Shown piece by piece: positions 3,900-18,826 of a DNA stretch of 20,000 nt. A program made the position numbers and the translations under genes. The notes under the pieces are model-generated. The model saw only the letters and a program-made list of their open reading frames with translations. It was not told where the DNA came from and ran no database searches. Origin of the DNA: an uncultured virus (IMG/VR IMGVR_UViG_3300006213_002470) (taxonomy: Duplodnaviria; Heunggongvirae; Uroviricota; Caudoviricetes); IMG/VR virus record IMGVR_UViG_3300006213_002470; one strand, 5' to 3'. The stretch's first letter is position 1. The number at the start of each line of letters is the position of its first letter.

Positions 3900-3920
3900 C
3901 ATCTACGTTATATCTATCAT

Positions 3921-3939
3921 GAACCCATTACTGGGAATT
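3921..3939 (-). promoter_or_regulatory. Conserved leader GNRA hairpin, copy 1 (candidate antitermination site)
   Basis: AATT-CCCA-GTAA-TGGG-TTC between the promoter (4000-4027) and the terminator (3873-3899). Matches copies at 15547-15565 and 18808-18826. Confidence 0.6.
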
Positions 3940-3999
3940 GCTTTTACAGGTATTCAGCATAAGCCATTTACCATAAAAATAAAAAAATTTATAATAGAT

Positions 4000-4027
4000 A
4001 TTATAATACTCTTTCCGATTTTGTCAA
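4000..4027 (-). promoter_or_regulatory. Sigma-A/70 promoter of the left operon
   Basis: TTGACA-N16-TATAAT on the minus strand, with perfect consensus hexamers. Confidence 0.75.
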
Positions 4028-4062
4028 TAATTGTCAAATTTCCAATCCGTCCCCTGCGCCCC

Positions 4063-4091
4063 TTGACTTTAACATTTATTTCTCTTAAAAT
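4063..4091 (+). promoter_or_regulatory. Sigma-A/70 promoter of the alpha-CTD-like gene, divergent from 4000-4027
   Basis: TTGACT-N17-TAAAAT. Confidence 0.7.
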
Positions 4092-4146
4092 TAGAATACT
4101 TCCATCCTTTGCCACGCAACCTATAAAAATTGAGGATATAATATTT

Positions 4147-4533
4147 ATGAACATGATTGCAATTCAAAATAATCCAATTTCCAAAAATACAAAGAAATTC
4201 TTAAAAAATATCGGCATTACGGATATCTCAGCAGTTGACACGATTTCCTTTTCTTCTTTGGAACAGAACCTCCTGCCTTACGATCTTGAAAAAATAGTAT
4301 ATGAGTTAATGCCTCTCGGATGCCTGCGCCACCCTGATGGCGAGATTTTCATTTTTGACATTCCAATGACCAAAAGATTACTGCATATCCTGGCGAATTA
4401 TGATGTATATTACTTATCAAGGCTGGCAAAGTACAGTCTTAGAGAAATTATGCAGTTCCGCAACCTCGGAGCCAATACCTTCCATGAATTGGAAAAAGTA
4501 TGCAAGGAATACGAAACCCCACTACCCGACTGA
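4147..4533 (+). CDS. Stand-alone RNA polymerase alpha-subunit CTD-like protein (about 128 aa), putative regulator
   Basis: C-terminal IPMTKRLLHILANYDVYYLSRLAKYSLREIMQFRNLGANTFHELEKVC follows the alpha-CTD pattern (LSVR..N.L....I....DL...S..EL...RNLG.KS..EI). Start re-assigned from 3919 to 4147 using the GAGG RBS and upstream promoter. Confidence 0.75.
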   Translation: MNMIAIQNNPISKNTKKFLKNIGITDISAVDTISFSSLEQNLLPYDLEKIVYELMPLGCLRHPDGEIFIFDIPMTKRLLHILANYDVYYLSRLAKYSLREIMQFRNLGANTFHELEKVCKEYETPLPD

Positions 4534-4604: not shown

Positions 4605-5498
4605 TTATTGCTTTTTTAATTGACATAACTGCGATAAACACAAGCGGAAAGCAAAATCCTGGGCATACCGTCCGCTTTTTATTCCATTCACTGCCTTTTG
4701 AATAATGTCAATCCCCTCGTCAGCCTGATCCAGCGTCATCTTGGGAATATATGTCCTCTGATGAACACCTACTTCCTGTAAGGAACAGCCGCACACATTA
4801 ACCTTATACAGAATACGATAGCTCCTTAAAAGGAGAGAAAGCGTACCTATCACGTTCTGTCCGCCATTCTGGATTATCAAGTCCGCCTGATGAAATAAAT
4901 CTGTAGTCCTGCCTTTGTCTATCAGGCATATCAGCTTGAAAACATCCTCCCGTTCATTTACCTGCACCAGCCGCTGCACTAGTTCCGTCGTTATTTCATC
5001 CTGTGTTGTACACAGTCGGTTCAGCGCTGATTTTACATGATATAAGTTTACATCCTCCATTTCATAATTAATGCGCATAAGGAATTCCTCGTATGCTCCT
5101 TTGGTAATTTTGCAATTCTGCCTTTTTATGTATCCTAAAATCCATTTTTGCAGCATACCCATATCCTTATCCAGCTGCTTTACGCTTTCTTTAGGGAATT
5201 TCTTATACAGTGAAAGCCTTTTGTCTATCTCTCCGGCAAATATATATATATCTGTCTTGGGCGCCGGCTCTTTCAGGTATTTTTCCAAAAACTCATTTGC
5301 CGCCAGTTTTTCCATAGACACAATCAGAACCCTGCGGTTTCCCATAAACGGCATCTGCTTTGCAAAATCTCTCTCCGTCTGCGTGAACTGCTCCGTTTCC
5401 ATGAGATTGAATTCAGGCATCACAATCCCCTTGACTGCCTCTGCCCTATATGCATGGAGCAGATAAGGCTCATTTCCAAAAATCAATTCATTTTTCAT
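4605..5498 (-). CDS. holA: DNA polymerase III delta subunit (HolA)-like clamp-loader protein, divergent element-borne copy
   Basis: N-terminal LIFGNEPYLL, QMPFMGNRRVLIV, LQKWI...ITxGAYE, EDVFKLIxxI and IKSG, with length about 300 aa. These are typical HolA features. Confidence 0.75.
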   Translation of the reverse strand: MKNELIFGNEPYLLHAYRAEAVKGIVMPEFNLMETEQFTQTERDFAKQMPFMGNRRVLIVSMEKLAANEFLEKYLKEPAPKTDIYIFAGEIDKRLSLYKKFPKESVKQLDKDMGMLQKWILGYIKRQNCKITKGAYEEFLMRINYEMEDVNLYHVKSALNRLCTTQDEITTELVQRLVQVNEREDVFKLICLIDKGRTTDLFHQADLIIQNGGQNVIGTLSLLLRSYRILYKVNVCGCSLQEVGVHQRTYIPKMTLDQADEGIDIIQKAVNGIKSGRYAQDFAFRLCLSQLCQLKKQ

Positions 5499-8157
5499 AC
5501 CGCGCTCTCCTATTTACAGAAATATATTTCTCAATATCCTTAAGGAAATTGCTTTTCCCCGGATAGTCCTCCAGAATAAACAATACCCTTTTCGCCCTGG
5601 TTACTGCCACATATAAAAGCCTGCGATCCTCTTCCACATCGCCGCATTCAAAATTGTCTACCCCATAGATAATAACCGCAGGAAACTCTTTTCCTTTCGC
5701 GTCATGGGCAGTTAACATGCGGACCTGGGAACGCTCTCCCGTGCTGTAATAAATTCTCGTGTCGTCTTCAAAGACCTTCATTGCTGACATAATCTCATAG
5801 AGCTGTTTGTAATGCTTAATCTTCTTCTCATACATTATGTCCTCTATCTTCTCAAGCACCTCCTTCGTGCAGACTCCCGTTGGAAAGAAAAACAATCCCA
5901 ATTCCGACAACGCCTGCTTTAATGGCTTTTTCAACACCTGCATGGCACGATAAATAGAACCATATGCTTTTTTCAGCGGTTCCAACGGTTCCAGAAAATA
6001 TCTGCTGGATTCTTCCCCATAGAAATCATATATCAATCCCTCATTTACATGGTCCTCATAGATACTGAGCTTCCTGTCTGCCTTTTCCACTGTACAGCCC
6101 ATGATACTTAAAAGCCGGAACAATGCCTTATCCTGATGCATCCCCTTGACCGCAAGCTCCAACAAGTCCAAAAGCATCTGAAAAACGCAGTCTTCACGCA
6201 GGTAGAACTTCGGCCGTTCAAGCGGCACCGCTACACCGGTCAGGACTGCATCTTTATCTACAATCTTACACAGGTTATTCAGCTCCTTATTTGTCCGGGC
6301 AATTACTGCAATATCCGAATACGCATATCCTTTTCCATGTATTTCCTTAATCAGCGCCCCAAACCTGCAATCATTAAAATTGGGTATGTGTATAGCCTGT
6401 ATTCCCGTGGAAAAAGACGCTGCCAGCTGCATTGGCACCCGCTCCCGATTCTTTTCTATCAGACCTGACGCCATTGTTACAATTTCTTCTGAAGAGCGGT
6501 AATTCCTGGAAAGCAGAATATCTTTCGTTTCAGGAAATATGTCTGGGAAATCCAGCATAAATCGGTTGCTTCCGCCCCGAAAGGCATATATCGACTGATC
6601 CGCATCACCACAAATCATCAGATTATTTTCCGGTTCCTTCACCAGCAGCCTGACAAACTCCGCCTGGGCATCATCGAGATCCTGCACTTCGTCCACCATG
6701 ATATAGTCATACTGATTCTGCACCGTTTCCAAAATACCCTGATTGTTTTTCAACAGTTCTACCGCCATACCAACCTGATCGTCAAAGGTAATGTATCCCA
6801 TTTCTTTAAAGGCTGCATCATACAGCTTCTTGACTCCTATGATTCCTTCCACGTCTTTTTTGCTATATGCGTTAGAAAATGCCTCTATCCCATGCTTGTT
6901 AATAAATTCAAAATCTTTCAACAGCGTTGCTATCAGACCGTAGCGCATGGTAAGCCCCTCATAGCTGACCCCGGAAATCAAGGGCGCATGGTTAAGGACT
7001 TTCATCAACAGGTTCTTACAGTCCACAAGCCCTGCAAGACGTACCGGACCTGTCAGGAACTCATTCTGGGTGAGAATCCCAAATGCCAGCGCATGGAGTG
7101 TATAAATATTGACGCCCTGCCCCACCTGCACTCTCTCCTGCATTTCCTGCGCCGCTTTCTTGGTAAAGGTAATCGCAAGGATCTTTTCTGCCGGAACTCC
7201 TGACTCCGCCAGCTTTCGTATCCGTTCTACCAGGACAGCCGTTTTACCACTGCCGGGACCTGCGCACACACGAAGGGGACCCTTTACATGGTTTATTACA
7301 TTTTCCTGTTCTTTGGAAAAAGAAATCTCCTTTTTCTTTGTATGTGCTTCTTCCGCCTGCTTTAAAAGAACAATATTCGGCGGTTTGCAAATATTTTCAA
7401 AAAAGCAACCGTCACAGGAACACTCCTCTGCCTGTCCGATAATATGCTGTATATGCTCCCATACCCCTTCCGGATGCCGCTCAATATACTCCCCGCTTGA
7501 AATCTGAATGATATTATCACCTTTCTTTTCCTCGAACCTTGCAAGCCGGTCCGGTTTGTCAGCGGAAGATGCAAGCCTTACCATCATTACCCTGATCTCC
7601 TTTTGGGGATACTTTTTACTAAGCCCTTCCATCAGAACCAGCATTTCCAGACTGTTCTCCACTTTATGCTGCAGCTTCCTCGCCCTATATGAATACGGCT
7701 TACAAAAGTTCCTGCATAAAATGACGCCAACAATACTTCCATCAGACTGTTCAAACAGCAGGTCTGCCGTTCCTGAAATGCCAGTTACGTCTATTTCACC
7801 GTGGCACAGCGGCATCTCCAAAGATACCATTGTATTTACTGATATTCTTGCCAACGATGGGATTGGGAAATTCTTTAAGAACCGGTCAAACAGCGCAATT
7901 TCATGTGCAATCACCCTTTTACGCTGCCAGCAGAGGGCGAACCAGTCTTCCTGATACGCCTCCTCCATATACATCTGCAGCTCTTCTATGATGGTATCTC
8001 TTTCCTTTCCCATGGCAATTCCCGCAGACATCCTCCTGATTGCCTCACTAAAACATAGATTCCTTGCATTATGGTCTTTCAGTGAAAGTTTTTGCAGTTT
8101 ATATTTTCTGCCGCATTCCAATCCTGCAATCAAATCCTTACTCCTTATATGTTCCAC
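5488..8157 (-). CDS. UvrD/PcrA-family SF1A helicase with an N-terminal AddB/Cas4-like Fe-S PD-(D/E)XK-like domain
   Basis: Helicase motifs: SKEQ, AGPGSGKT, ITFTKKAA, VDEVQD, GDADQSIYAFRG, NYRS, TAHDAKGKEF, EEDRRLLYVAVTRAK. The N-terminus has C15, GTADLL and C248-x2-C251-x5-C257. GTG start with AAGGAGG RBS. Confidence 0.9.
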   Translation of the reverse strand: MEHIRSKDLIAGLECGRKYKLQKLSLKDHNARNLCFSEAIRRMSAGIAMGKERDTIIEELQMYMEEAYQEDWFALCWQRKRVIAHEIALFDRFLKNFPIPSLARISVNTMVSLEMPLCHGEIDVTGISGTADLLFEQSDGSIVGVILCRNFCKPYSYRARKLQHKVENSLEMLVLMEGLSKKYPQKEIRVMMVRLASSADKPDRLARFEEKKGDNIIQISSGEYIERHPEGVWEHIQHIIGQAEECSCDGCFFENICKPPNIVLLKQAEEAHTKKKEISFSKEQENVINHVKGPLRVCAGPGSGKTAVLVERIRKLAESGVPAEKILAITFTKKAAQEMQERVQVGQGVNIYTLHALAFGILTQNEFLTGPVRLAGLVDCKNLLMKVLNHAPLISGVSYEGLTMRYGLIATLLKDFEFINKHGIEAFSNAYSKKDVEGIIGVKKLYDAAFKEMGYITFDDQVGMAVELLKNNQGILETVQNQYDYIMVDEVQDLDDAQAEFVRLLVKEPENNLMICGDADQSIYAFRGGSNRFMLDFPDIFPETKDILLSRNYRSSEEIVTMASGLIEKNRERVPMQLAASFSTGIQAIHIPNFNDCRFGALIKEIHGKGYAYSDIAVIARTNKELNNLCKIVDKDAVLTGVAVPLERPKFYLREDCVFQMLLDLLELAVKGMHQDKALFRLLSIMGCTVEKADRKLSIYEDHVNEGLIYDFYGEESSRYFLEPLEPLKKAYGSIYRAMQVLKKPLKQALSELGLFFFPTGVCTKEVLEKIEDIMYEKKIKHYKQLYEIMSAMKVFEDDTRIYYSTGERSQVRMLTAHDAKGKEFPAVIIYGVDNFECGDVEEDRRLLYVAVTRAKRVLFILEDYPGKSNFLKDIEKYISVNRRARYEK

Positions 8158-8171
8158 TTTTTCCTCCTTAT

Positions 8172-8200
8172 AAAAAAACGGGGCAGCTTTCCGCCGCCCC
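8172..8200 (-). terminator. Strong intrinsic terminator internal to the operon, just before the helicase RBS
   Basis: GGGGCGGC-GGAAA-GCTGCCCC followed by GTTTTTTT. Confidence 0.8.
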
Positions 8201-8206
8201 TAAAAT

Positions 8207-9037
8207 CTACGCCACCTTTTTTAGGGCGTCAGTATAAGCCTCCAGTTTCTTTAATGCAATATCAAGAAGCTGATCCATAACAAACGTCTTGCATACCCAG
8301 TTAGGATCAAAATTGTCAAAACTATAATAATTGTAACCATCACAGCCAAGCAAAAAAACACCGTACTCCTCTCCATCACATTCCTTTTTCTCTTCAGCAA
8401 AGCAGACCCAAAACGGCATCCAGATATCATGCTCCAACCTGCTTATATGAAGATCTTCTTCCTTGCACACCGTCTGTATCAGATCTGCATCCTGTTTCTT
8501 AAGCGCATTATATGTAATCAGTTTCTCATTTAATAAAATGCCAAGATTAAAGTAATCCGTATAACGTACCGCCTCATTCACTAATTTCTCCTCATTCTCA
8601 AAGAATTTTCTCGCAAAACCTTCCACGCCGCATTCATCCAGAAATTCCATATACGCCTTATGAAACCGCTCCTCTTCCGAATCTTCACTGCCCCCGGAAT
8701 CACCAGAAACCTCAATGTCCCCACATTCATGTCGAAAACACATACATTTCCATCCGTTAACGTTGACAGCCGTATGCATAATATCCGACATCTCCTCGTC
8801 CCAAAAACAATAATCCTCTTGTGCCTCGTCATCTGCACCTACTAACCTTGTGGGATCATACGTTCTAACAAGCTCCGGCTGATACTTTTCCCAAAAAAGG
8901 TTCAAGTACCGTAAAATCAGATTGCACAGGTTAGCCCGGAGCGGGGACGAAGCATGATAATTACCCGTTATGTACTCATCGAGCACAGTATCATCAAACG
9001 GACAGGTATCTATTTTCAAAATATCTTCCAACGTCAC
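8207..9037 (-). CDS. Hypothetical acidic protein (276 aa), paralog of 9034-9825
   Basis: GTG start with GGAGG RBS, overlapping the upstream stop (GTGA). N-terminus MTLEDILKIDTCPFD. Confidence 0.85.
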   Translation of the reverse strand: MTLEDILKIDTCPFDDTVLDEYITGNYHASSPLRANLCNLILRYLNLFWEKYQPELVRTYDPTRLVGADDEAQEDYCFWDEEMSDIMHTAVNVNGWKCMCFRHECGDIEVSGDSGGSEDSEEERFHKAYMEFLDECGVEGFARKFFENEEKLVNEAVRYTDYFNLGILLNEKLITYNALKKQDADLIQTVCKEEDLHISRLEHDIWMPFWVCFAEEKKECDGEEYGVFLLGCDGYNYYSFDNFDPNWVCKTFVMDQLLDIALKKLEAYTDALKKVA

Positions 9038-9825
9038 ATTTTGTCCTCCTTGTTCATTTTAAATAATTCCATTGCATACTCCAGCAGTTTATCCAGCACT
9101 GCAATCCTGATGAAAAACAAACTATTCATCATCCGAAAGTTCACAGCGCCATCACCATTCCAACCTTCAAACAGGCCCAGTAAATACTTGCCTGCATCAA
9201 GCATGCAAAAATCTTCCTCGAATTTTATACATAACGGTCTACAGATTTCCTTCAGCAGTTCTTCAATTTTTTTATCCCCTTCCGAAAAAGCCAGCTTGAC
9301 TTTCCGGTAGTTTTGTTTCCTGAACTGCAGATACCATCCTAAATTATAATTCCAAAAAATATAGTATTTTGCATTGCTGCGATTTGGTTTTAGGATTTTT
9401 TTCATTTTTCTAACCAGCTTTGCCGCGCTTTTCCACTCTCCCAGTTGGCACGGCTCCGTATCCGGCAGCCGTGTCAGAACCTTCTCCTTGTATACCATAA
9501 TTCTGTACTGCCAGTTGCATTCCGTCATTACCTGCGTAAAAATTTTTCCGGCAAACTCTCCTGAATACCACTGCATGATATAGTTCTCGATATTCACGCT
9601 TTTATCCTTTCCTGACAAACAGTAATTAACAACCGGCAAAGAGACAGCTATATTCATATCCGCAATAAATTTTTCAATATACCGGTAAAGCAGAAGAAAA
9701 CGTACCCATTTTTCAACTGACAGATGCGATGATACATAGGTGGAAACCCATATCTTACTTATATCATATACCATTCCTTCATCAATCGGAGTCGTATCAA
9801 TGGCAAGAATATCTTCCAAGTTCAT
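9034..9825 (-). CDS. Hypothetical protein (about 263 aa), paralog of 8207-9037
   Basis: Start re-assigned to the ATG at 9825 (GGAGG RBS, ATGA overlap with the ThiF stop). N-terminus MNLEDILAIDTTPID. Confidence 0.85.
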   Translation of the reverse strand: MNLEDILAIDTTPIDEGMVYDISKIWVSTYVSSHLSVEKWVRFLLLYRYIEKFIADMNIAVSLPVVNYCLSGKDKSVNIENYIMQWYSGEFAGKIFTQVMTECNWQYRIMVYKEKVLTRLPDTEPCQLGEWKSAAKLVRKMKKILKPNRSNAKYYIFWNYNLGWYLQFRKQNYRKVKLAFSEGDKKIEELLKEICRPLCIKFEEDFCMLDAGKYLLGLFEGWNGDGAVNFRMMNSLFFIRIAVLDKLLEYAMELFKMNKEDKM

Positions 9826-10529
9826 GATGCCTCCTCCCTCGGCGTCCGATCCATTGAATAGCACTTGAACGCATCAAAGAAAACAATTCCGCCTGGCCAG
9901 TCATCCGAAAGAAACTTTATCGTATTAGCCAGCAGGATTAATGCTGCGAACTGGTTTGTTAAGAGATGCTGCGGTTCTGCCTGGTTCAAGACCTCACAGC
10001 TCTCCTCGCTCCTTTTTACAGCCCCCTCCTGCAGCACATCAGGAAAATAACTTGCCCTGTCAGGGTACATTTCCATCCCACCTATCCGCGATCCAATAAC
10101 GATTTCTCCCGACTGATATTCATTTGCACTATCCATGTAGATACAATGTTCCCTGTTCATATAAAAACTGTGCATGCTCTGCCTGCACTGGTGGTTATCG
10201 ACACACCCCACCAGAAAAACAAGCGAGTTGTCCCTCACAAGCTTTTCTATGTCCTTTTCGCAGTCAATATAACCGTCATAGTAATCCACGGAAAGACCAT
10301 ACGCCTGAGAAAGCATCTCAGCCATGACCTGCGCCTTATTATACCCTATATCCTGCGGCAAAAAAGCCTGCCTTACCAGATTTTTGTCCTCAACCTGATC
10401 ACCGTCAACCAGGACTATACGTATTTCATCGTTCCGCAGGCACCTGTTTCCATAAAGATATCTTCCAAGTTCCTTGATATAATGGCTTCCCGTGCCGCCA
10501 CATCCAACAATGACAATATCACTTTTCAT
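9822..10529 (-). CDS. ThiF/E1-family adenylyltransferase (PRTRC-type)
   Basis: IVIVGCGGTGS, LVDGDQVEDKNLVRQ, NKAQV, GCVDN...R, and candidate catalytic Cys in EESCE. Start at 10529 has a GGAGG RBS. Confidence 0.9.
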   Translation of the reverse strand: MKSDIVIVGCGGTGSHYIKELGRYLYGNRCLRNDEIRIVLVDGDQVEDKNLVRQAFLPQDIGYNKAQVMAEMLSQAYGLSVDYYDGYIDCEKDIEKLVRDNSLVFLVGCVDNHQCRQSMHSFYMNREHCIYMDSANEYQSGEIVIGSRIGGMEMYPDRASYFPDVLQEGAVKRSEESCEVLNQAEPQHLLTNQFAALILLANTIKFLSDDWPGGIVFFDAFKCYSMDRTPREEAS

Positions 10530-12270
10530 TTGTCTTATCCTCCATTTCAAAAACATCACTCAGCTTCAGCATTTTGTAATTTCCGGCAATGCCGGCACGC
10601 AGCTTATGGGTAATTTCTTTCTTGTCAAGGTTGCCAAATACCATAAACAGGCGCGTGCCTTTCTCGTCATTATCATCTATGGACGAAAAAAAGGCATTCA
10701 TGCTTCCATGACTATGTATATCCATAACCAATACTTTGTCATTTTCCATATCGTGGTTGCGCGTAAAAACAACACTTGCAGACGTCACTTGCTGTTCCGG
10801 ATAATATATTTCATACTTTTCCGTTTCCAAGTTATAAAAAATCTGCACGGCAGCTTCCTTGCGCGGATTTCTCTTAAAAAAGGCAACAACATCCATCAAA
10901 ATCCCATAAGGAATCTTTTTTTCCGTCATCCTGAAATCCACATCGGAACCGTCTTCCCTGCAGTCAAAACATCCATACGGCATCTGCTCAATTCTGTAAA
11001 CAGAACCATCACGCCCCGTTACAATAAAAAACCCCTGATTCTTGCGCACATTCATTATCTGAACGCCTTTCCGGGAGCCTTTGAGTACTGGAATAACAAA
11101 TCCCCTTTCGTCATAATGCATTTCTGTACGCTCTTTTGAAAATTCCGGATAAATGCGCTCTATCACTGTACGGATTTCTTGCAGCGTAGCCGACTCTGCG
11201 TTTTTCAGGTCTTCTTTCTCAACCATCATTGTAAAGCCGGATCCACGTACAAGAATAGGCAGGCCAATCCGTTCGTTGTCCATCTCCTTTTTAAACTCCA
11301 ATACTGGGAACAGCAGGTTAATTTCTGCATTATAAACGAACATTCCGTTTTCGTACTCAGGATGCTTTTTCCCATAAGTTTTACGGATTTCCTCTAAAGT
11401 CACCTGTTCTTTTTCCGCATTTCCAAAATCCACGCCAGTATACGTTTCCTTTTGATCCAGATATCCTATTTGGATAGGCAGGCTGTACTTCTTACCCTTG
11501 ATTTCGGTACCGCCTAACATATATGGGAACAGCAGGCTGTTTCTCTCATCATAACAGAAATGACAACCCGCATATTCAGGATACTCTTTCACCCAGGCCT
11601 CGCGAATTTCTTCAAGCGAAGCCTTTTCCTTTATTTCCAGTTCATATTTCCCGACTTTAACAGTTAACGGAAATGCGATGGTCTGATCCTTTTTTACTTC
11701 CTGATACTGGATATCCAGCTTGACCCAGCACCCTCCGCTCTGACTGGTTTTTTCATCTGTTTGTCCGTCATCAGATCCACCGCCTGTCTCCGCAGCTTCT
11801 TCCTCAGCATCCAGTTCTTCATCCTGCTCCTCGCCCTCATCTTCATTCCCATAATCTTCTTCAGACGCAGCTTCCGCAATGTCTAACGGTTCTTCTTCAG
11901 TTCGGTCTTTCTCATCATCCGCGTCTGTATTTTCCGCAAGCTTTTCCATTGTTTCATGCAGCCTCGTAAATTCATTGCTGAACTTTACAAGACTGAACTG
12001 AATACCGCTCAATTCAGGATACAGCTTACGAAGCTCTGTCTTTATTTCGTTTTCGCCCAGAGTCACTCCTCCAAACTGCTCATTCGTAAGCGTACACTGG
12101 ATATATCCGCTTCTGATCCGCACGGGTAACTGATAGCGTCCACCCTGCTTTACGGGCTTTTTTTCCTTCTTCGCTGTTTTTCCGCTGCCCTTTCCTTTTG
12201 CACCTTTCTTCTTGTTAGCCACATCCTCACTGCTGATTCCAAATAATTCTGCTAAACTGCTACTGCTCAT
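10519..12270 (-). CDS. Four tandem prokaryotic Ubl-like repeats fused to a C-terminal JAB/MPN metallopeptidase
   Basis: JAB motif E(KEAAVQ)...HSHGSMNAFFSSIDD. Four repeats of LP/FP...(S/T)LEEIR...(Y/H)PE...hhPh, the last ending GSRKG. The second ATG (12270) has better RBS spacing than 12276. Confidence 0.85.
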   Translation of the reverse strand: MSSSSLAELFGISSEDVANKKKGAKGKGSGKTAKKEKKPVKQGGRYQLPVRIRSGYIQCTLTNEQFGGVTLGENEIKTELRKLYPELSGIQFSLVKFSNEFTRLHETMEKLAENTDADDEKDRTEEEPLDIAEAASEEDYGNEDEGEEQDEELDAEEEAAETGGGSDDGQTDEKTSQSGGCWVKLDIQYQEVKKDQTIAFPLTVKVGKYELEIKEKASLEEIREAWVKEYPEYAGCHFCYDERNSLLFPYMLGGTEIKGKKYSLPIQIGYLDQKETYTGVDFGNAEKEQVTLEEIRKTYGKKHPEYENGMFVYNAEINLLFPVLEFKKEMDNERIGLPILVRGSGFTMMVEKEDLKNAESATLQEIRTVIERIYPEFSKERTEMHYDERGFVIPVLKGSRKGVQIMNVRKNQGFFIVTGRDGSVYRIEQMPYGCFDCREDGSDVDFRMTEKKIPYGILMDVVAFFKRNPRKEAAVQIFYNLETEKYEIYYPEQQVTSASVVFTRNHDMENDKVLVMDIHSHGSMNAFFSSIDDNDEKGTRLFMVFGNLDKKEITHKLRAGIAGNYKMLKLSDVFEMEDKTNEK

Positions 12271-12285
12271 AATCATATCCTCCTT

Positions 12286-12993
12286 TTATTTTTTCCATGT
12301 CATTAAATCTTTCAGGCACATATTCCCTCTCTGCTTTTTTATTGGCATAAGATATTCTTCTGGGAAATCCTGTTTGTTATGGAGCTGCTCAAATAGTTCA
12401 CGCAGCGGTATATCCTTCACTCCAATACACTTTTCTGACTTATACAGATCCGAGTTGCATGGACTCTGTATAAACAGCGTCATTACCATTTCCAGCCTCT
12501 TTATTTCCAGGATGTCCGGAAATACATTACTTCCCCAACAAACTCTCCCATCATCGTATACGTTTCCAAATGGATATCTGTAAAGCACACTATTCCCCGT
12601 CGGTTTATCATCTTTTAATACAAAAACCCGCGTTTTTTCCAGCCTGCCCTTATCCACATGAAACGAAAACACAAGTGACGGCACACAGACATCGTACTGA
12701 GTATTCTCATACTGCATCATCTGCATGCTTGCAGGTAGCACAGTGACAATATCCGCCTTTAACTTATTGTTTCTAATACCAACCGCACCGTTGTAATATC
12801 CAAACGGAATTTCTCCAATAGGTGTTAGTTCTACTGTTTCAACAACCGACTTTTGAAAAGCTTTTAACAGAGAGCCCATTTCTACCATTTTGGAATTTTT
12901 TCTTCCTTTCTCATCCGTAAATACAACATTGGCACAATCGTAACCATGAGAACGGTTAAAATTCTGATTCAAATAAATCGCTATATCCTGCAT
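12286..12993 (-). CDS. Prokaryotic E2 family D protein (PRTRC system protein B-like)
   Basis: VPSLVF...LYRYPFGNVYDDGRVCWG signature with the catalytic-position Cys, adjacent to JAB and ThiF genes. Alternative start at 12999. Confidence 0.85.
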   Translation of the reverse strand: MQDIAIYLNQNFNRSHGYDCANVVFTDEKGRKNSKMVEMGSLLKAFQKSVVETVELTPIGEIPFGYYNGAVGIRNNKLKADIVTVLPASMQMMQYENTQYDVCVPSLVFSFHVDKGRLEKTRVFVLKDDKPTGNSVLYRYPFGNVYDDGRVCWGSNVFPDILEIKRLEMVMTLFIQSPCNSDLYKSEKCIGVKDIPLRELFEQLHNKQDFPEEYLMPIKKQRGNMCLKDLMTWKK

Positions 12994-13013
12994 TACCATA
13001 CCCTCCTTTTACT

Positions 13014-13292
13014 CTACAACGCTCTCCGCTGATTATTTTTATAATCAACCAGCTTCGATGCATCAAAATAATCTTCGGCACACGATTCATAAAGACTCAA
13101 AATTTCCGGTGTCTCATGAAACAGGTCTGCCATTCCTTCCAGACTAAGTTCATTAATGACCCTCTTATCTCCTGCCAATACCAAAAATAATGTCCGAAGC
13201 CTTTGACTTTTCTCATTAAGCTGACCGATATCCACGGGCTTCAGCTTCGATAATTCCTTCTGAAACCGCTTTCCATCAATAAAAATAGCCAA
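13014..13292 (-). CDS. Hypothetical protein (92 aa)
   Basis: TTG start with AAAGGAGG RBS, tightly packed in the operon. Confidence 0.8.
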   Translation of the reverse strand: MAIFIDGKRFQKELSKLKPVDIGQLNEKSQRLRTLFLVLAGDKRVINELSLEGMADLFHETPEILSLYESCAEDYFDASKLVDYKNNQRRAL

Positions 13293-13308
13293 AACGTATC
13301 CTCCTTTT

Positions 13309-14265
13309 TTAGTGAATAAAATTGCAATAGTTCAAAACATAATCAAAGCCTAATCCTCCCGCACTCATAGGTTCCATAACAAACCTGTATACCTTTGGAT
13401 AATTTTCCCTAAGCCGCTGGTACCTGTTCGGCTGTTCCTCCAAATGGCATCCCATAGCGCAGTACATACAGCCTGTCCTCTGCTCGCCCGTATTGTAATA
13501 GGCTCCTTTTTCGCCGCAGATTTTACCGTATACAGGACATATCCTTAAATTATTTTCCACTGCATACCGCAGGATATCCTGCCGCGGCCAGAAACCGAGT
13601 GGCTGTGATTTAGGCTTATCTGCAAGATACACGTTGCACCCTGTCCGGTTATACTGTCTCTGCCTCATAAAACCTTCATCCTGCGTGATCCCTATGTATG
13701 GCACCCGTCCGGTTCTTTTTCCATATTCAGTCAACGGTTTTTCCTTCATGACTATGCAGCAATATTCGCTTATATCAAACGGCGCATCTATAAGGAATTT
13801 CCAGCATTCAGACAGCTTACCAAGCTTCCCCCGTTCATCTCCATGCAAAAGGTAATTCCGGTAGCGCTCTGACAGGTTTCCATGCCTGAGCTTTCGTATC
13901 TTTGCAGCAACTTCCTTACTGATTAACGGATAGCCATAAGTAAGCAGGACATCTTTAAAATTCATTTCCGGATACAGGATTTCCACATCATAAAAACTAC
14001 GGACAAACTCCCGTATCTGAGGGAATTCTAAGCCTGTATCCACAAAAACCTTTGGTATGGACCGGTCCAGAACCCTCTCCACCATATGCACCAGCACCGT
14101 TGAATCCAGGCCGCCGGAAAAACTGATATACACATCTCCGCCATAATATTCATACCATTGCCGTATCCGTGTAGCAGAGAGCCTCAGCTTTATCTCATAT
14201 GGCAGATATTTTCGCTGACTGAACTCCCAATCCTGCAGTTTCAAATCTTTGTCCATGATATACAT
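13309..14265 (-). CDS. PAPS-reductase-family (PP-loop) protein, phage/mobile-element type
   Basis: ISFSGGLDS PP-loop, VFVDTGLEFP, CC..MKEKP and RTGCMYC (Fe-S Cys pattern). Confidence 0.85.
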   Translation of the reverse strand: MYIMDKDLKLQDWEFSQRKYLPYEIKLRLSATRIRQWYEYYGGDVYISFSGGLDSTVLVHMVERVLDRSIPKVFVDTGLEFPQIREFVRSFYDVEILYPEMNFKDVLLTYGYPLISKEVAAKIRKLRHGNLSERYRNYLLHGDERGKLGKLSECWKFLIDAPFDISEYCCIVMKEKPLTEYGKRTGRVPYIGITQDEGFMRQRQYNRTGCNVYLADKPKSQPLGFWPRQDILRYAVENNLRICPVYGKICGEKGAYYNTGEQRTGCMYCAMGCHLEEQPNRYQRLRENYPKVYRFVMEPMSAGGLGFDYVLNYCNFIH

Positions 14266-14269
14266 TTTC

Positions 14270-14728
14270 TTACACCCTTTTTCTAGCTAAAAAGCTGAAA
14301 TCAATCTCCTTTTGCAAAAATAAAAGAATGTAAATACCTACTTCATAAATGAACAGGTTCACCCTGTTGCTATGATAGTTTTGTATCCACATTCCTGCTA
14401 TCCGGGCAGCATCTTCCGCGTTGCCCACAATTTTCCCTTGCTCCAGCCGGCATCCTTTCATTGTAATCTTCTCTGCAATGTCAAACCCGGCATATTTCGT
14501 CTCCATTCGTTCGCGGTAATACTTCATCAGTTCCTCCGCCTCGCTTAAATTTTCAAGCAATATCACCGCTTCCATTTCATCAATGCAGAGCCCGTCTTCC
14601 ACATCCTCCGCCAACTGCATTGCCGCAATCAGGTACAGCACATAGAGCGCATAAGCGTAATGATAGTTGACATATACATCAAACGGCTCTATCCCATGCT
14701 TTCTAAAAAACTGACTTCCTTTCATCAT
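14270..14728 (-). CDS. Hypothetical protein (152 aa)
   Basis: ATGA overlap with the upstream stop and 4 bp gap to the next gene. Confidence 0.8.
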   Translation of the reverse strand: MMKGSQFFRKHGIEPFDVYVNYHYAYALYVLYLIAAMQLAEDVEDGLCIDEMEAVILLENLSEAEELMKYYRERMETKYAGFDIAEKITMKGCRLEQGKIVGNAEDAARIAGMWIQNYHSNRVNLFIYEVGIYILLFLQKEIDFSFLARKRV

Positions 14729-15450
14729 GCTGCGCCTTTCTTGTCAAATGAAACAAATTCCAGCTGCATACTCCCGCGGTATTCTTTGCGTATCCCGCGA
14801 AAAGTCATTTCATTCAGTTTTTGCCCAATCTGAAATTTTTCACCGTATGCTTTTTGGAGATCATCCCACTGCTTTTTCCAAATGAAAAGCTCGAGTGTTT
14901 CCCCATCACAACATACTTTCGCCTTGACACCGCCCTTCGGCAAGGCTTTAAAAGGCTCCATGACCGTCACTTTCACGACCACTTCTTTCTGCGGTTCCCG
15001 ACCGGGCTGCCGAGATCCGGTTGACGCTTTTCCTTTCATGCCAATCCCGAACCTTTTTGCACATCGTTTAAAAACATCCTGCACTGCAGAGTCAACCGAA
15101 TTTGCAACAGATGTTGGACGTGTTGATTCTTTGGGATAGATGACATCTGCCGCCCCGCTGGTACTGCGCACAATAGGTACACGCTCGTCATCATAGATAC
15201 TGAGTTTTCCGCTTGCAATGCAGCTTTCAAATCCATCAGATCCGAAACTGTACACCTGGACGGGGGCTATGAGTTCAAAGTCCCAATTTCCCATACCCAC
15301 CACGTTATTCAGGCGCTCTTCAATCTTTTCAACCGGTATGTACGCCATTCCTGTTGACGGATGCTTTTTTACCGCATCTGAAGGAAATTCCGCCTGAAGC
15401 TTTTCCCATACTTCTCGTATGGGCATTCCATTTACTGTTCTTTCTTTCAA
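14725..15450 (-). CDS. Rad52/Rad22 (Sak-like) single-strand annealing protein with a probable C-terminal OB fold
   Basis: LQAEFP..., AYIP...IEERLNNVVG..NW, SAVQDVFKRCAKRFGIG. C-terminal GxxxEYRGxxQL beta-rich domain. Start re-assigned to the TTG at 15450 (AAAGGAGG RBS). Confidence 0.85.
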   Translation of the reverse strand: MKERTVNGMPIREVWEKLQAEFPSDAVKKHPSTGMAYIPVEKIEERLNNVVGMGNWDFELIAPVQVYSFGSDGFESCIASGKLSIYDDERVPIVRSTSGAADVIYPKESTRPTSVANSVDSAVQDVFKRCAKRFGIGMKGKASTGSRQPGREPQKEVVVKVTVMEPFKALPKGGVKAKVCCDGETLELFIWKKQWDDLQKAYGEKFQIGQKLNEMTFRGIRKEYRGSMQLEFVSFDKKGAA

Positions 15451-15479: not shown

Positions 15480-15510
15480 AAAAAAAGCGCCTACAGTAAC
15501 CTGTAGACGC
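15480..15510 (-). terminator. Leader intrinsic terminator of the large operon
   Basis: GCGTCTACAG-GTTA-CTGTAGGCGC followed by TTTTTTT, between the promoter and the first gene. Confidence 0.8.
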
Positions 15511-15546: not shown

Positions 15547-15565
15547 GACCTGTTTCCAGGAATTT
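15547..15565 (-). promoter_or_regulatory. Conserved leader GNRA hairpin, copy 2
   Basis: AAATT-CCTG-GAAA-CAGG-TC on a basal stem ACAGAGGGA/TCTTTTTGT. Confidence 0.6.
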
Positions 15566-15618: not shown

Positions 15619-15647
15619 ATTATATTATAAGTTGGTTAGGTTGTCAA
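15619..15647 (-). promoter_or_regulatory. Sigma-A/70 promoter of the large operon
   Basis: Perfect TTGACA-N17-TATAAT on the minus strand. Confidence 0.85.
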
Positions 15648-16969: not shown

Positions 16970-17992
16970 TTATAAACTATTGTACCAAGCAGTTGCGTAT
17001 GAGGCTCTCTGATTCAATACAGCAATTCCGTCTCCAGATCTCTCATAATGATCATGGAATACTTTGGCCAGAGTGCCAGCATCCAACGTAGATGCCTTAA
17101 ACTCAGAAAAAGTCAGCCTAATTCCTGTATGATCCATGCTACCACCAGCGGTAGGCTTAAAAAAATCCCCCCTAGAAGTGCAACACCATAGTAAACAAGA
17201 TAACTCAGCATTCATAAGAGTCTTGGGATTACTGTTTGTTAAGTTATTAACAGCAGCTGCTGTGGCTGCACTTAATACACCCGTTTCCACTGCTCTGTTG
17301 AGGAATACAGTTGCCGGAGTCCATTGTACTAAGCCATAACCAAGAGAAGTATTATTTGATGACTGCCATATTCCGGGATTTATTCCACTTTCTTGCTGCA
17401 TATTACCTAAAACTCCACATGCCGCATTTTTTGTAAACCCTTGCTGCATCAAGTATGACAGTACATACTTTGCATTGCTTGTCATTTGTGCAGATGTTAA
17501 TGTTGATACGCCCGTACATACCGAAGCATAAACATTTCCTGTAACGACGCTACCACCACCGGGATATACATCATATCCGAACAAGTACTGCCACGTAAGA
17601 GAATTGACTACACCAGTATTACTGATCCCCATCTTCTGCTGAAATGTTTTTGTTGCTGATTCAGAGCCAGCGCCGAATGCACCATCTATTGAAACAGACT
17701 CAAACTTGTTAATTAAATACTGTGCTGCCCTTGCTGCATTATTAGAAGTACCTCTTTTCACCTCAACAACAATTGCAGCCAAAGTTGCAGGACCCGCTAT
17801 TCCATCAGGATCCAGATTATGTTTTGACTGATAGCTGGAAAGCGCCGTCTTAGTGCCGTTGCCAAAATTTCCATCAACAGAAATTGAAGCACCATGATAA
17901 TTAAGCAAACACTGCAATGCAGACACATTTGCTCCTTTGTTCCCTGACTTAATAGTAGGCCATTTCGGTGTTGTTGCGAAAACTGTTTCCAT
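16970..17992 (-). CDS. Peptidoglycan hydrolase: two PG_binding_1 domains plus a phage-tail-lysozyme (Phage_lysozyme2-like) domain
   Basis: DGNFGNGTKTALSSYQ...DGIAGPAT and DGAFG..SESATKTFQ repeats. Catalytic domain AACGVLGNMQQESGINP...GYGLVQWT...YERSG. Start re-assigned to 17992 (AAGGGG RBS). No signal peptide. Confidence 0.85.
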   Translation of the reverse strand: METVFATTPKWPTIKSGNKGANVSALQCLLNYHGASISVDGNFGNGTKTALSSYQSKHNLDPDGIAGPATLAAIVVEVKRGTSNNAARAAQYLINKFESVSIDGAFGAGSESATKTFQQKMGISNTGVVNSLTWQYLFGYDVYPGGGSVVTGNVYASVCTGVSTLTSAQMTSNAKYVLSYLMQQGFTKNAACGVLGNMQQESGINPGIWQSSNNTSLGYGLVQWTPATVFLNRAVETGVLSAATAAAVNNLTNSNPKTLMNAELSCLLWCCTSRGDFFKPTAGGSMDHTGIRLTFSEFKASTLDAGTLAKVFHDHYERSGDGIAVLNQRASYATAWYNSL

Positions 17993-18557
17993 AATTATAT
18001 CCCCTTTTTTTTGCAAATATTCAATTTTCATCATTTTTGTAATATTAATTTCATGTTACACTACTGAATTTTTATTTCCAGCCACCACTAAACAATATTT
18101 AGCTTGAATCCATCATAATCACCCCTTCTCTACTGTTTTTATGAAGTATTCATCGTTATACATACGCTGTCAACTAATGATGCACTCTTGATTTTTCTAT
18201 TTTTATACAACAATTTTCCAAGTTTGTTAATAGAATTTTGTAAATGTACAACTTTTCATTCTAATGTACAATATAAACATTCAACTTTGTATAGTACATC
18301 TCTATCCTTTATACAGACATCATTCCACCAAAACATAATATTTTAAACCATCATTATAATATTCTCATATATGCTTTGCTTTCTTACTTCAGCATCACTT
18401 CAATAAAAAACTAGTTTTTATTACATGAATCAAATATACTGCAATATCTCATTGAACGATGCCGTCTTTATGAAAATTCTTTTATCAATATTTTAAAATT
18501 ATATCAATTAGGTTTATTTTTGCACCCTCTTATACAAAATCTAAACCATACACACAG

Positions 18558-18807: not shown

Positions 18808-18826
18808 AAATCCCTGGCAACAGGTT
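18808..18826 (+). promoter_or_regulatory. Conserved leader GNRA hairpin, copy 3
   Basis: AAATC-CCTG-GCAA-CAGG-TT immediately before a terminator. Confidence 0.6.

Follow-up and report, generated by a model that had tools for sequence, protein, structure and literature searches.

The bacterial ubiquitin-like (Ubl) conjugation pathways described in 10.1101/2024.11.21.623953 work against phages, or have been proposed to do so, and a further class of such pathways, operon type 6d of Iyer, Burroughs and Aravind, was predicted in 2006 (PMC1779556). Class 6d is taken here as equal to the PRTRC system of NCBIfam (models PRTRC_A, PRTRC_B, PRTRC_C and PRTRC_ThiF). What such a pathway does when it is encoded among genes of DNA replication and recombination is the question raised by a 20,000-nucleotide stretch of DNA catalogued as the uncultured virus record IMGVR_UViG_3300006213_002470 (the whole stretch is called the window below). 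Eleven genes, all on the minus strand, occupy its positions 4605-15450 in the order Rad52-like protein, a protein of 152 amino acids (aa), PAPS-reductase-like protein, 92-aa protein, E2, Ubl-JAB, E1, 263-aa protein, 276-aa protein, UvrD and HolA. The curated Pfam cut-offs were passed for Rad52_Rad22, PAPS_reduct, Prok-E2_D, Prok-JAB, ThiF, UvrD-helicase and DNA_pol3_delta.

Results

Ubl-JAB precursor and conjugation enzymes

The Ubl of this operon has no gene of its own and forms the N-terminal part of the JAB protein, a 583-aa precursor. The complete E1-E2-Ubl-JAB set announced by the original prediction holds for its components, with the Ubl repeats fused to JAB. Four beta-grasp repeats precede the peptidase and are mutually homologous (pairwise hhalign probability 92-98%). 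An AlphaFold2 model of the protein, built from a 59-row alignment with a mean predicted local distance difference test score (pLDDT) of 73, shows four compact repeats ahead of the JAB domain. In this model, repeat 1 matched MoaD (Z 6.0, root-mean-square deviation (rmsd) 2.6, 56 aligned) and repeat 4 matched Fubi and ubiquitin (Z 5.6 and 5.5, rmsd 2.5, 57 aligned), all of these Z values being middling. The C-terminus of ubiquitin coincides with the end of repeat 4 in the structural alignment, and the assignment of repeats 2 and 3 as Ubl is based on their homology to the other repeats. A long acidic disordered insertion lies within repeat 1, ahead of its last strand (window 11700-11920, minus strand), and is shorter in relatives of about 500 aa.

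Repeat 4 terminates in L-K-G-S-R-K-G402, a motif found in 87 of 88 homologues, and the free-standing Ubls of related split-gene plasmids end at KG in four cases out of four, which makes G402 the likely mature C-terminus and cut site. The JAB domain passed the Prok-JAB model with an E value of 9e-7 and structurally resembles Rpn11, JAMM1 and BilC; its metal site is complete in 24/24 aligned relatives, and the JAB motif is present in 86 of the 88 homologues. A beta-rich extra region before JAB contains an invariant R426, which is preceded by Trp in some lineages and by Tyr in the window.

The candidate catalytic cysteines of the two remaining enzymes are equally constant, Cys152 of the E2 being present in 25/25 aligned relatives and Cys178 of the E1 in 24/24. 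The region after the E2 cysteine reads P-C-N-S-D in the window, and a His is found there in one of 25 rows. The best NCBIfam models were PRTRC_ThiF for the E1 (TIGR03736, 97.4 bits against a cut-off of 144.75), PRTRC_A for the JAB and PRTRC_B for the E2, all three under the curated cut-offs. Taken together, these sequence comparisons support a conjugation module that is complete and looks catalytically intact.

The fusion is sporadic among the genomes searched, as a family-wide search recovered it in one of 401, namely the seed itself. With a distant homologue as query, no locus was found in the genome contigs. None of 147 plasmid records covered 80% of the 583-aa query, and profiles of the repeats detected one repeat each in two Bacilli plasmid proteins that were scanned. 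No relative was found in viral contigs, and six phage records were matched by the JAB part alone. The window's Ubl repeats gave no match in Pfam or NCBIfam, including PRTRC_C and Prok_Ub. Additionally, Ubl-JAB is shortened to 461 aa in one lineage and divided into two open reading frames (ORFs) in another (loci L025/L026 and L027), which may reflect decay or sequence error.

The element and its replication proteins

A relaxase of the Replic_Relax family at the end of the window suggests a conjugative element. The earlier assignment of a PRTRC-like module to a mobile element is supported. As part of the explanation put first below, we tentatively regard the operon as backbone of a large Lachnospiraceae conjugative plasmid or integrative and conjugative element. 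One locus (L003) is identical to the window across 18,612 bases, and the Ubl-JAB of a 147-kb relative, contig G001:C1, is 76% identical to that of the window.

Of the 126 ORFs of G001:C1, 116 were scanned, the ten left out being orthologues of the operon itself. The scanned ORFs encode DnaE, DnaX (NCBIfam cut-off passed), a HolB-like protein, SSB, ParA and a ParB-like protein, as well as a coupling protein, a relaxase of the window's family, Tad pilus genes and a Y-family polymerase. A divergent DnaN-like protein was recognised at E values under the cut-off (2.5e-4 with TIGR00663, and 5e-4 for its profile against the solved clamp 6ap4). The assembly containing L003 carries an orthologue of it on a different scaffold. 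A 328-aa protein first suspected to be the clamp was rejected as YhaM-like. In all, G001:C1 holds a near-complete Pol III holoenzyme (L095:1899-3125 and L095:18278 to L096:4398), in addition to the HolA of its Ubl operon. The parA and parB-like genes stand about 40 kb from the cassette, and no ParB-family gene was found among the 19 window proteins by Pfam and NCBIfam scans.

HolA itself scored 114 bits with TIGR01128 (cut-off 80) and an E value of 1e-6 with DNA_pol3_delta, and its profile matched the solved delta subunit 3zh9_B with an E value of 2.9e-15. Since the relative encodes the rest of the Pol III holoenzyme, HolA is explained without ubiquitination, and its best reading is delta of a clamp loader that the element itself encodes, not an E3-like adaptor; its partners DnaX and HolB are placed on the relative G001:C1, outside what the window shows.

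A peptide on the tag resembling a clamp-binding motif

The clamp-binding consensus has been given as QL(S/D)LF in the text available of PMC9690074, and the N-terminus of the precursor resembles it and lacks the Gln. Within the window's clade, the form L-x-[DEAS]-L-F occurs in 77 of 81 intact N-termini, and the hydrophobic pair at motif positions 4-5 is kept. Among annotated plasmids carrying related cassettes, the canonical pattern Q-x-x-[LI]-F was found within the first 42 residues of 7/14 Ubl proteins and of 0/92 neighbours (Fisher p 1.4e-7, for a pattern chosen post hoc); an unannotated upstream start gives an eighth plasmid protein of this kind, and Gln forms of the peptide also occur in four gut lineages that lack holA. 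The idea that loss of the Gln tracks a divergent clamp was rejected, as Alkalihalophilus combines the Gln with a divergent clamp and B. mycoides combines its absence with an annotated dnaN; thus, no co-evolution is claimed.

When residues 1-32 of the precursor were modelled with the element's DnaN-like protein, the complex scored 0.54, and the best of three controls scored 0.00. Of 157 solved complexes, 116 reached the mark applied, as did two of 215 mismatches; those reaching it at 0.60 or below were just 18 of the solved complexes and the two mismatches. The runs showed at least 45% contact agreement and a partner pLDDT of at least 46. This modelling lends weak support to docking of the Ubl tag on the sliding clamp.

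Gene neighbourhood across lineages and plasmids

Single linkage of the JAB-bearing proteins at 70% identity divided the 95 sequences compared (94 loci and the window) into 27 lineages; L084 and L085, in which no Ubl-JAB ORF was called, stand outside the lineages. Counts refer to the 18 lineages whose downstream sequence extends for 8 kb or more, nine of the 27 having less. The uvrD and holA genes lie downstream of the module in 12/18 lineages, and neither gene is present in the other six. In three of these six, YqaJ, RecD2 and ERF are encoded a few genes downstream, so that helicase and annealase functions recur through other families; further neighbours of the module are RecA/SSB, ArdC or none recognisable. 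Rad52 is present in five of the 12 holA-bearing lineages and missing from seven. Where both occur, HolA distances follow those of E1, E2 and JAB (rho 0.84-0.90 in 11 lineages, figures that include no unlinked control), and the values among E1, E2 and JAB are 0.84-0.87.

At only 27% identity, the complete Butyrivibrio plasmid pNP144 still brings E2, Ubl-JAB, Rad52, E1, helicase, holA, ssb and dnaX together. More widely, a clamp or clamp-loader gene was present in the fetched stretch of seven of 14 annotated plasmids: four of these have dnaN, two have dnaX/holB and a divergent clamp, and one has holA and dnaX. These counts leave out Stanieria, in whose annotation no cassette is recognisable, and the unannotated Subdoligranulum, which has the cassette, an adjacent Rad52-like gene and a Gln-less peptide. 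Recurrence of the replisome link in other plasmid lineages through different subunits (dnaN; dnaX and holB) is thus supported. The conserved neighbourhood anticipated for the module was found within one clade, where it is co-inherited with uvrD and holA; across the family the genes assort independently.

Promoter, leader and terminators

A promoter matching the consensus at every position heads the operon, and relatives carry a similar one 83-87 nt upstream of a leader hairpin motif. This motif occurs three times in the window against 0.03 expected, and seven times in G001:C1 (positions 7782, 27087, 51679, 69978, 81809, 110993 and 128810) against a shuffle mean of 0.17, the pattern having been derived from these same leaders. 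The operons that it heads in G001:C1 include those of the Ubl, of holB-dnaX-dnaE, of the DnaN-like protein, of the relaxase and of the pilus. Rfam holds no family for the leader, and a gyrA-motif match was dismissed as sub-threshold and located inside coding sequence.

The attenuator-like hairpin that follows the motif is well conserved, as all seven pairs of its stem are kept in 15/15 leaders, five of them with changes on both sides. Counted over the whole leader, all 11 pairs hold in 15/15 and six are changed on both sides, a signal that stems mostly from the terminator. A second hairpin with a T-run stands before uvrD in 7/15 loci, and in seven others uvrD abuts or overlaps the upstream stop. 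The original prediction had envisaged one tightly coupled operon holding the Ubl module and the replication and recombination genes; the gene identities are upheld (Pfam, TIGR01128), and the tight coupling is qualified by the hairpins at 15510-15487 and 8200-8180. Co-transcription of the whole operon would be conditional and appears plausible only with read-through. The element-wide leader looks like a recognition site for an antiterminator, or else a palindromic operator; no antiterminator was identified.

At window 3919-4533, a gene on the plus strand encodes a protein with a domain like the C-terminal domain of RNA polymerase alpha (E 1.4e-4). It runs opposite to, and overlaps, the second promoter and leader, is kept in close relatives, and is a candidate regulator.

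Remaining genes of the operon and the element

The coordinates of all features are collected in Table 1. Between E1 and uvrD lie two paralogous proteins of 263 and 276 aa. The family of the latter comprises 83 clusters at 50% identity; the protein gave no outstanding viral or PDB fold match, no Atlas match above 0.81 and no NCBIfam family, and the PRTRC models matched none of 16 members of the pair. Its profile reached lineages without holA, and neither pNP144 nor the Bacilli proteins. It is a candidate for a substrate-selection factor or for the helical protein of class 6d. For the 152-aa protein no family was found in Pfam or NCBIfam.

In seven loci (L012, L115, L116, L118, L120, L122 and L124), proteins of 103-114 aa upstream of E2 bear acidic-aromatic tails (EDDFI, DEDFF), which we take to recall the C-terminal tail of SSB; the 92-aa protein of the window has no such tail. 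The N-terminal domain of UvrD (window 7300-8157, minus strand), with an early Cys and a C-x2-C-x5-C cluster, is lost in L042 and L050; to our eye it presumably recalls the Fe-S nucleases of AddB/Cas4 type, and it is devoid of their usual catalytic motif. Elsewhere in the window, a peptidoglycan-binding and phage-tail-lysozyme protein is encoded inside an AT-rich insert (16970-18034, minus strand), where short contigs of one RNA run are far deeper, contigs that support no expression claim. In G001:C1, a tsaC/tsaD/tsaE/tsaB-like cluster for tRNA t6A lies beside parA (L096:11091-14557), and pNP144 encodes cas12a and cas2 (L112:14445-18629).

Table 1. Features of the operon and its surroundings, in window coordinates.
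Feature	Position	Strand	Characteristics
Ubl-JAB precursor, 583 aa	10519-12270	-	N-terminal peptide, four beta-grasp (Ubl) repeats to KG402, JAB peptidase
Clamp-binding-motif-like peptide	12241-12258	-	N-terminal; residues 5-10, no Gln
Four Ubl repeats	11065-12144	-	11980-12144, 11503-11682, 11290-11496, 11065-11274; Gly end in the last only
JAB/JAMM peptidase domain	10519-11064	-	E472, H519, H521, S529, D532
E2-like protein, family D, 235 aa	12286-12993	-	PF14460 E 8.2e-15; candidate catalytic Cys152
Minimal E1 (ThiF-like), single domain, 235 aa	9822-10529	-	PF00899 E 1.5e-15; GCGGTG nucleotide loop; crossover-loop Cys178
HolA, clamp-loader delta, 297 aa	4605-5498	-	Overlaps uvrD stop; TIGR01128 passed
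UvrD/PcrA-family helicase (superfamily 1A), 889 aa	5488-8157	-	PF00580 E 1.2e-52; helicase motifs intact; extra N-terminal four-cysteine domain
Rad52/Rad22-family single-strand annealing protein, 241 aa	14725-15450	-	PF04098 E 5.2e-6; TTG start behind ribosome-binding site
263-aa protein	9034-9825	-	Paralogue of the 276-aa protein, hhalign probability 99.7%
276-aa protein	8207-9037	-	Largely helical; AlphaFold2 pLDDT 85; best structural Z 5.2
92-aa protein	13014-13292	-	Immediately upstream of E2; 13 lineages; weakly matched in lineages without holA
PAPS-reductase-family (PP-loop) protein, 318 aa	13309-14265	-	Accessory; PF01507 E 4.5e-16
152-aa protein	14270-14728	-	Clade-conserved, 11 lineages; weakly in pNP144
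Promoter, sigma-70/sigma-A type	15619-15647	-	TTGACA-17-TATAAT; 12/12 consensus match; heads operon
Conserved leader hairpin	15548-15564	-	4-bp stem; loop mostly GNRA-type
Leader hairpin motif, further copy	3923-3939	-	Same motif
Leader hairpin motif, further copy	18809-18825	+	Same motif
Intrinsic-terminator-like hairpin in leader	15487-15510	-	Attenuator-like; precedes first gene
Strong terminator-like hairpin	8180-8200	-	Cassette to uvrD

Discussion

Our tentative answer, possible rather than probable, is that the Ubl-conjugation pathway is tied to the element's own sliding-clamp machinery. Judging from the conserved residues, JAB would cleave the precursor after Gly402 and release a tetra-Ubl, and the E1 would adenylate its Gly and then hold the Ubl as a thioester on Cys178. 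The Ubl would next pass to Cys152 of the E2 and be ligated to a target, possibly selected by the E2 or by the 263/276-aa pair, and JAB would remove it again, reversing the link. The N-terminal peptide of the tag would dock on a beta clamp, so that the reaction would be brought to clamp-bound proteins, or the tagged protein would gain a clamp handle. HolA would serve as delta of the element-encoded clamp loader, alongside DnaX and HolB, and its presence in the operon would reflect the operon's role in replication and recombination of the element. A fuller version, which we consider unlikely, has the Ubl system governing sliding-clamp traffic. In it, the element's replisome or recombination proteins, or else the clamp, would be reversibly ligated to a self-processed tetra-Ubl with a docking peptide. 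Large Lachnospiraceae elements would possess a private Pol III holoenzyme, a diverged clamp and a matching Gln-less docking code, controlled together by one element-wide attenuator leader.

Several observations weigh against the explanation put first. The Gln of the binding motif is found in none of the 81 N-termini of the window's clade by the pattern used, and the Q-x-x-[LI]-F pattern of the plasmids was picked after the N-termini had been inspected, in plasmids that are related to each other. The score of the modelled complex is weak and comes without an interface, and memory of solved clamp-peptide complexes could explain it. The partner in that complex is itself a weak assignment, its E values lying far under the cut-off, and that it belongs to the window's replicon is deduced from a relative. 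In 6/18 lineages and 7/14 plasmids the surroundings show neither a clamp nor a loader gene; the excess of clamp genes in the plasmid neighbourhoods has a P of 0.0003 to 0.09 depending on the locus number assumed per plasmid, again among related plasmids. Co-divergence of HolA with the module is expected for any two backbone genes. The leader is not specific to the replisome, since it also heads relaxase and pilus operons, and the His after the E2 cysteine that is described for class 6d is absent in the window.

It is rather unlikely, yet deserves most attention among the alternatives, that conjugation is real and the replication genes are mere backbone neighbours in one regulon, with host proteins being tagged (defence factors, proteolysis, establishment in new hosts) whether or not the clamp is used. 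The changing neighbours of the module and the many backbone operons headed by the leader motif fit this explanation, as does the terminator between the module and uvrD-holA in 7/15 loci, but it explains neither the clamp motif on the tag nor why the module is paired, repeatedly and independently, with dnaN, dnaX-holB or holA.

An anti-phage defence of Bil or Bub type, in which poly-Ubl would be attached to phage proteins, seems to us quite unlikely. Bil and Bub likewise show a multi-beta-grasp Ubl, a JAB-processed fusion and no E3 (10.1101/2024.11.21.623953), but the backbone position of the present module among replication genes is fixed across 27-100% identity, its E2 belongs to family D, and no defence-island regulators were seen in the neighbourhoods examined (PADLOC was not searched). 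We also consider it improbable that the Ubl carries sulfur or a chemical group for the modification of nucleic acids or small molecules, acting with the PAPS-reductase-like protein and tagging no protein. The PAPS-reductase-like gene is present in the operon in 7/12 holA lineages and near the cassette on three annotated plasmids, and the E1 is minimal and ThiF-like; however, many lineages that keep the module intact have lost the gene, a partner for sulfur transfer is not encoded, and thiocarboxylate chemistry has no need of an E2 with an invariant Cys. Finally, the earlier proposal of HolA as an E3-like substrate adaptor bringing E2-Ubl to the clamp is very improbable, for although HolA is co-inherited with the module in 12/18 lineages and retains a segment aligning with the matching segment of the solved delta, it is accounted for by DnaX, HolB and the DnaN-like protein on the same element, as seen in the relative, and the module is intact without it in six lineages and 13 of 14 annotated plasmid stretches.

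The original prediction is thus partly supported, and what is new is a precursor with four repeats, a private holoenzyme that accounts for HolA, and a leader shared between operons. The link to the clamp is a reasonable, testable lead, for which this variant offers handles in the form of the G402 cut site, two cysteines, a putative clamp-docking peptide and candidate partners on one replicon. If true, bacteria would have a counterpart of the control that Ubls exert at replication forks, with implications for the way in which large gut plasmids use machinery of their own to replicate; if it fails, an unusual poly-Ubl architecture within a known, unexplained family would still stand.

In eukaryotes, ubiquitin and SUMO regulate PCNA, Srs2 and Rad52, and the window similarly places a Ubl pathway beside a clamp function, a superfamily 1 helicase and an annealase, a likeness that is one of analogy only. 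Unlike the eukaryotic system, it has no E3, and from one lineage to another Rad52 and UvrD have been replaced or lost. Closer at hand are Bub (class 6e) and Bil, which share with the window a multi-beta-grasp Ubl, a fusion cut by JAB after Gly and the lack of an E3, according to the available text of 10.1101/2024.11.21.623953. The same source describes for Bub Ubl-E2 and JAB-E1 fusions, Tyr/Ser oxyesters and DUF6527, whereas the window keeps E1 Cys178 and E2 Cys152, has a Ubl-JAB fusion and gave no DUF6527 match. Bil is described there with a long IAD-AAD-CYS E1 and the tagging of phage tail proteins, in contrast to the single 235-aa E1 domain of the window. At the level of transcription, the conAn antitermination of pLS20 also concerns backbone operons whose internal terminators require read-through (PMC8191782). 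However, its conAn2 regions of about 260-600 bp lie behind the conAn1 gene, according to the same text, whereas the leader described here is about 150 nt long, with a short conserved hairpin, and is repeated ahead of seven operons.

The nearest described relative is class 6d/PRTRC. The window shares with it an E1-like protein, a JAB, a family-D E2 with a conserved Cys, a Gly-ended Ubl and a location on a mobile element. Where class 6d has a helical protein with conserved charged residues, the window has the largely helical 263/276-aa pair, which no PRTRC model matched. The JAB-N region of class 6d has a conserved Arg and Trp, to which R426 and the Tyr of the window's beta-rich region may correspond. 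By the account in PMC1779556, a His C-terminal to the E2 Cys is absolutely conserved in class 6d; unlike this, the window's E2 has no His after the Cys. Furthermore, the small, standalone Ubl of class 6d is replaced by four tandem repeats fused to JAB, with Gly402 internal, and instead of an adjacent ParB the neighbours are HolA, UvrD and Rad52. No experimental study of class 6d/PRTRC, or of a link to the clamp, was found in the literature covered, which took in few subscription papers and no supplements, and the neighbourhood supplement of PMC1779556 may already list clamp genes. A 2026 preprint, in the part available, reports PRTRC protein B under diversification in gut prophage, without a function being given.

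Also close are cassettes carried by large plasmids of Bacillota (B. mycoides p139, Cytobacillus pBO1, Virgibacillus, Lysinibacillus, Alicyclobacillus and Butyrivibrio pNP144), whose proteins are annotated just as hypothetical, Mov34 or ThiF. They share with the window the order E2, Ubl(-JAB), E1, and the N-terminal clamp-motif-like peptide of the Ubl and its KG end. In 7/14 a clamp or loader gene is close by, and several have a Rad52-like gene in the vicinity. Unlike the window, with its holA, they pair with dnaN or dnaX-holB, pNP144 being the exception. As it departs from class 6d/PRTRC in the standalone Ubl, the E2 His and the adjacent ParB, the system is not a strict member of that class but a divergent Bacillota variant of it.

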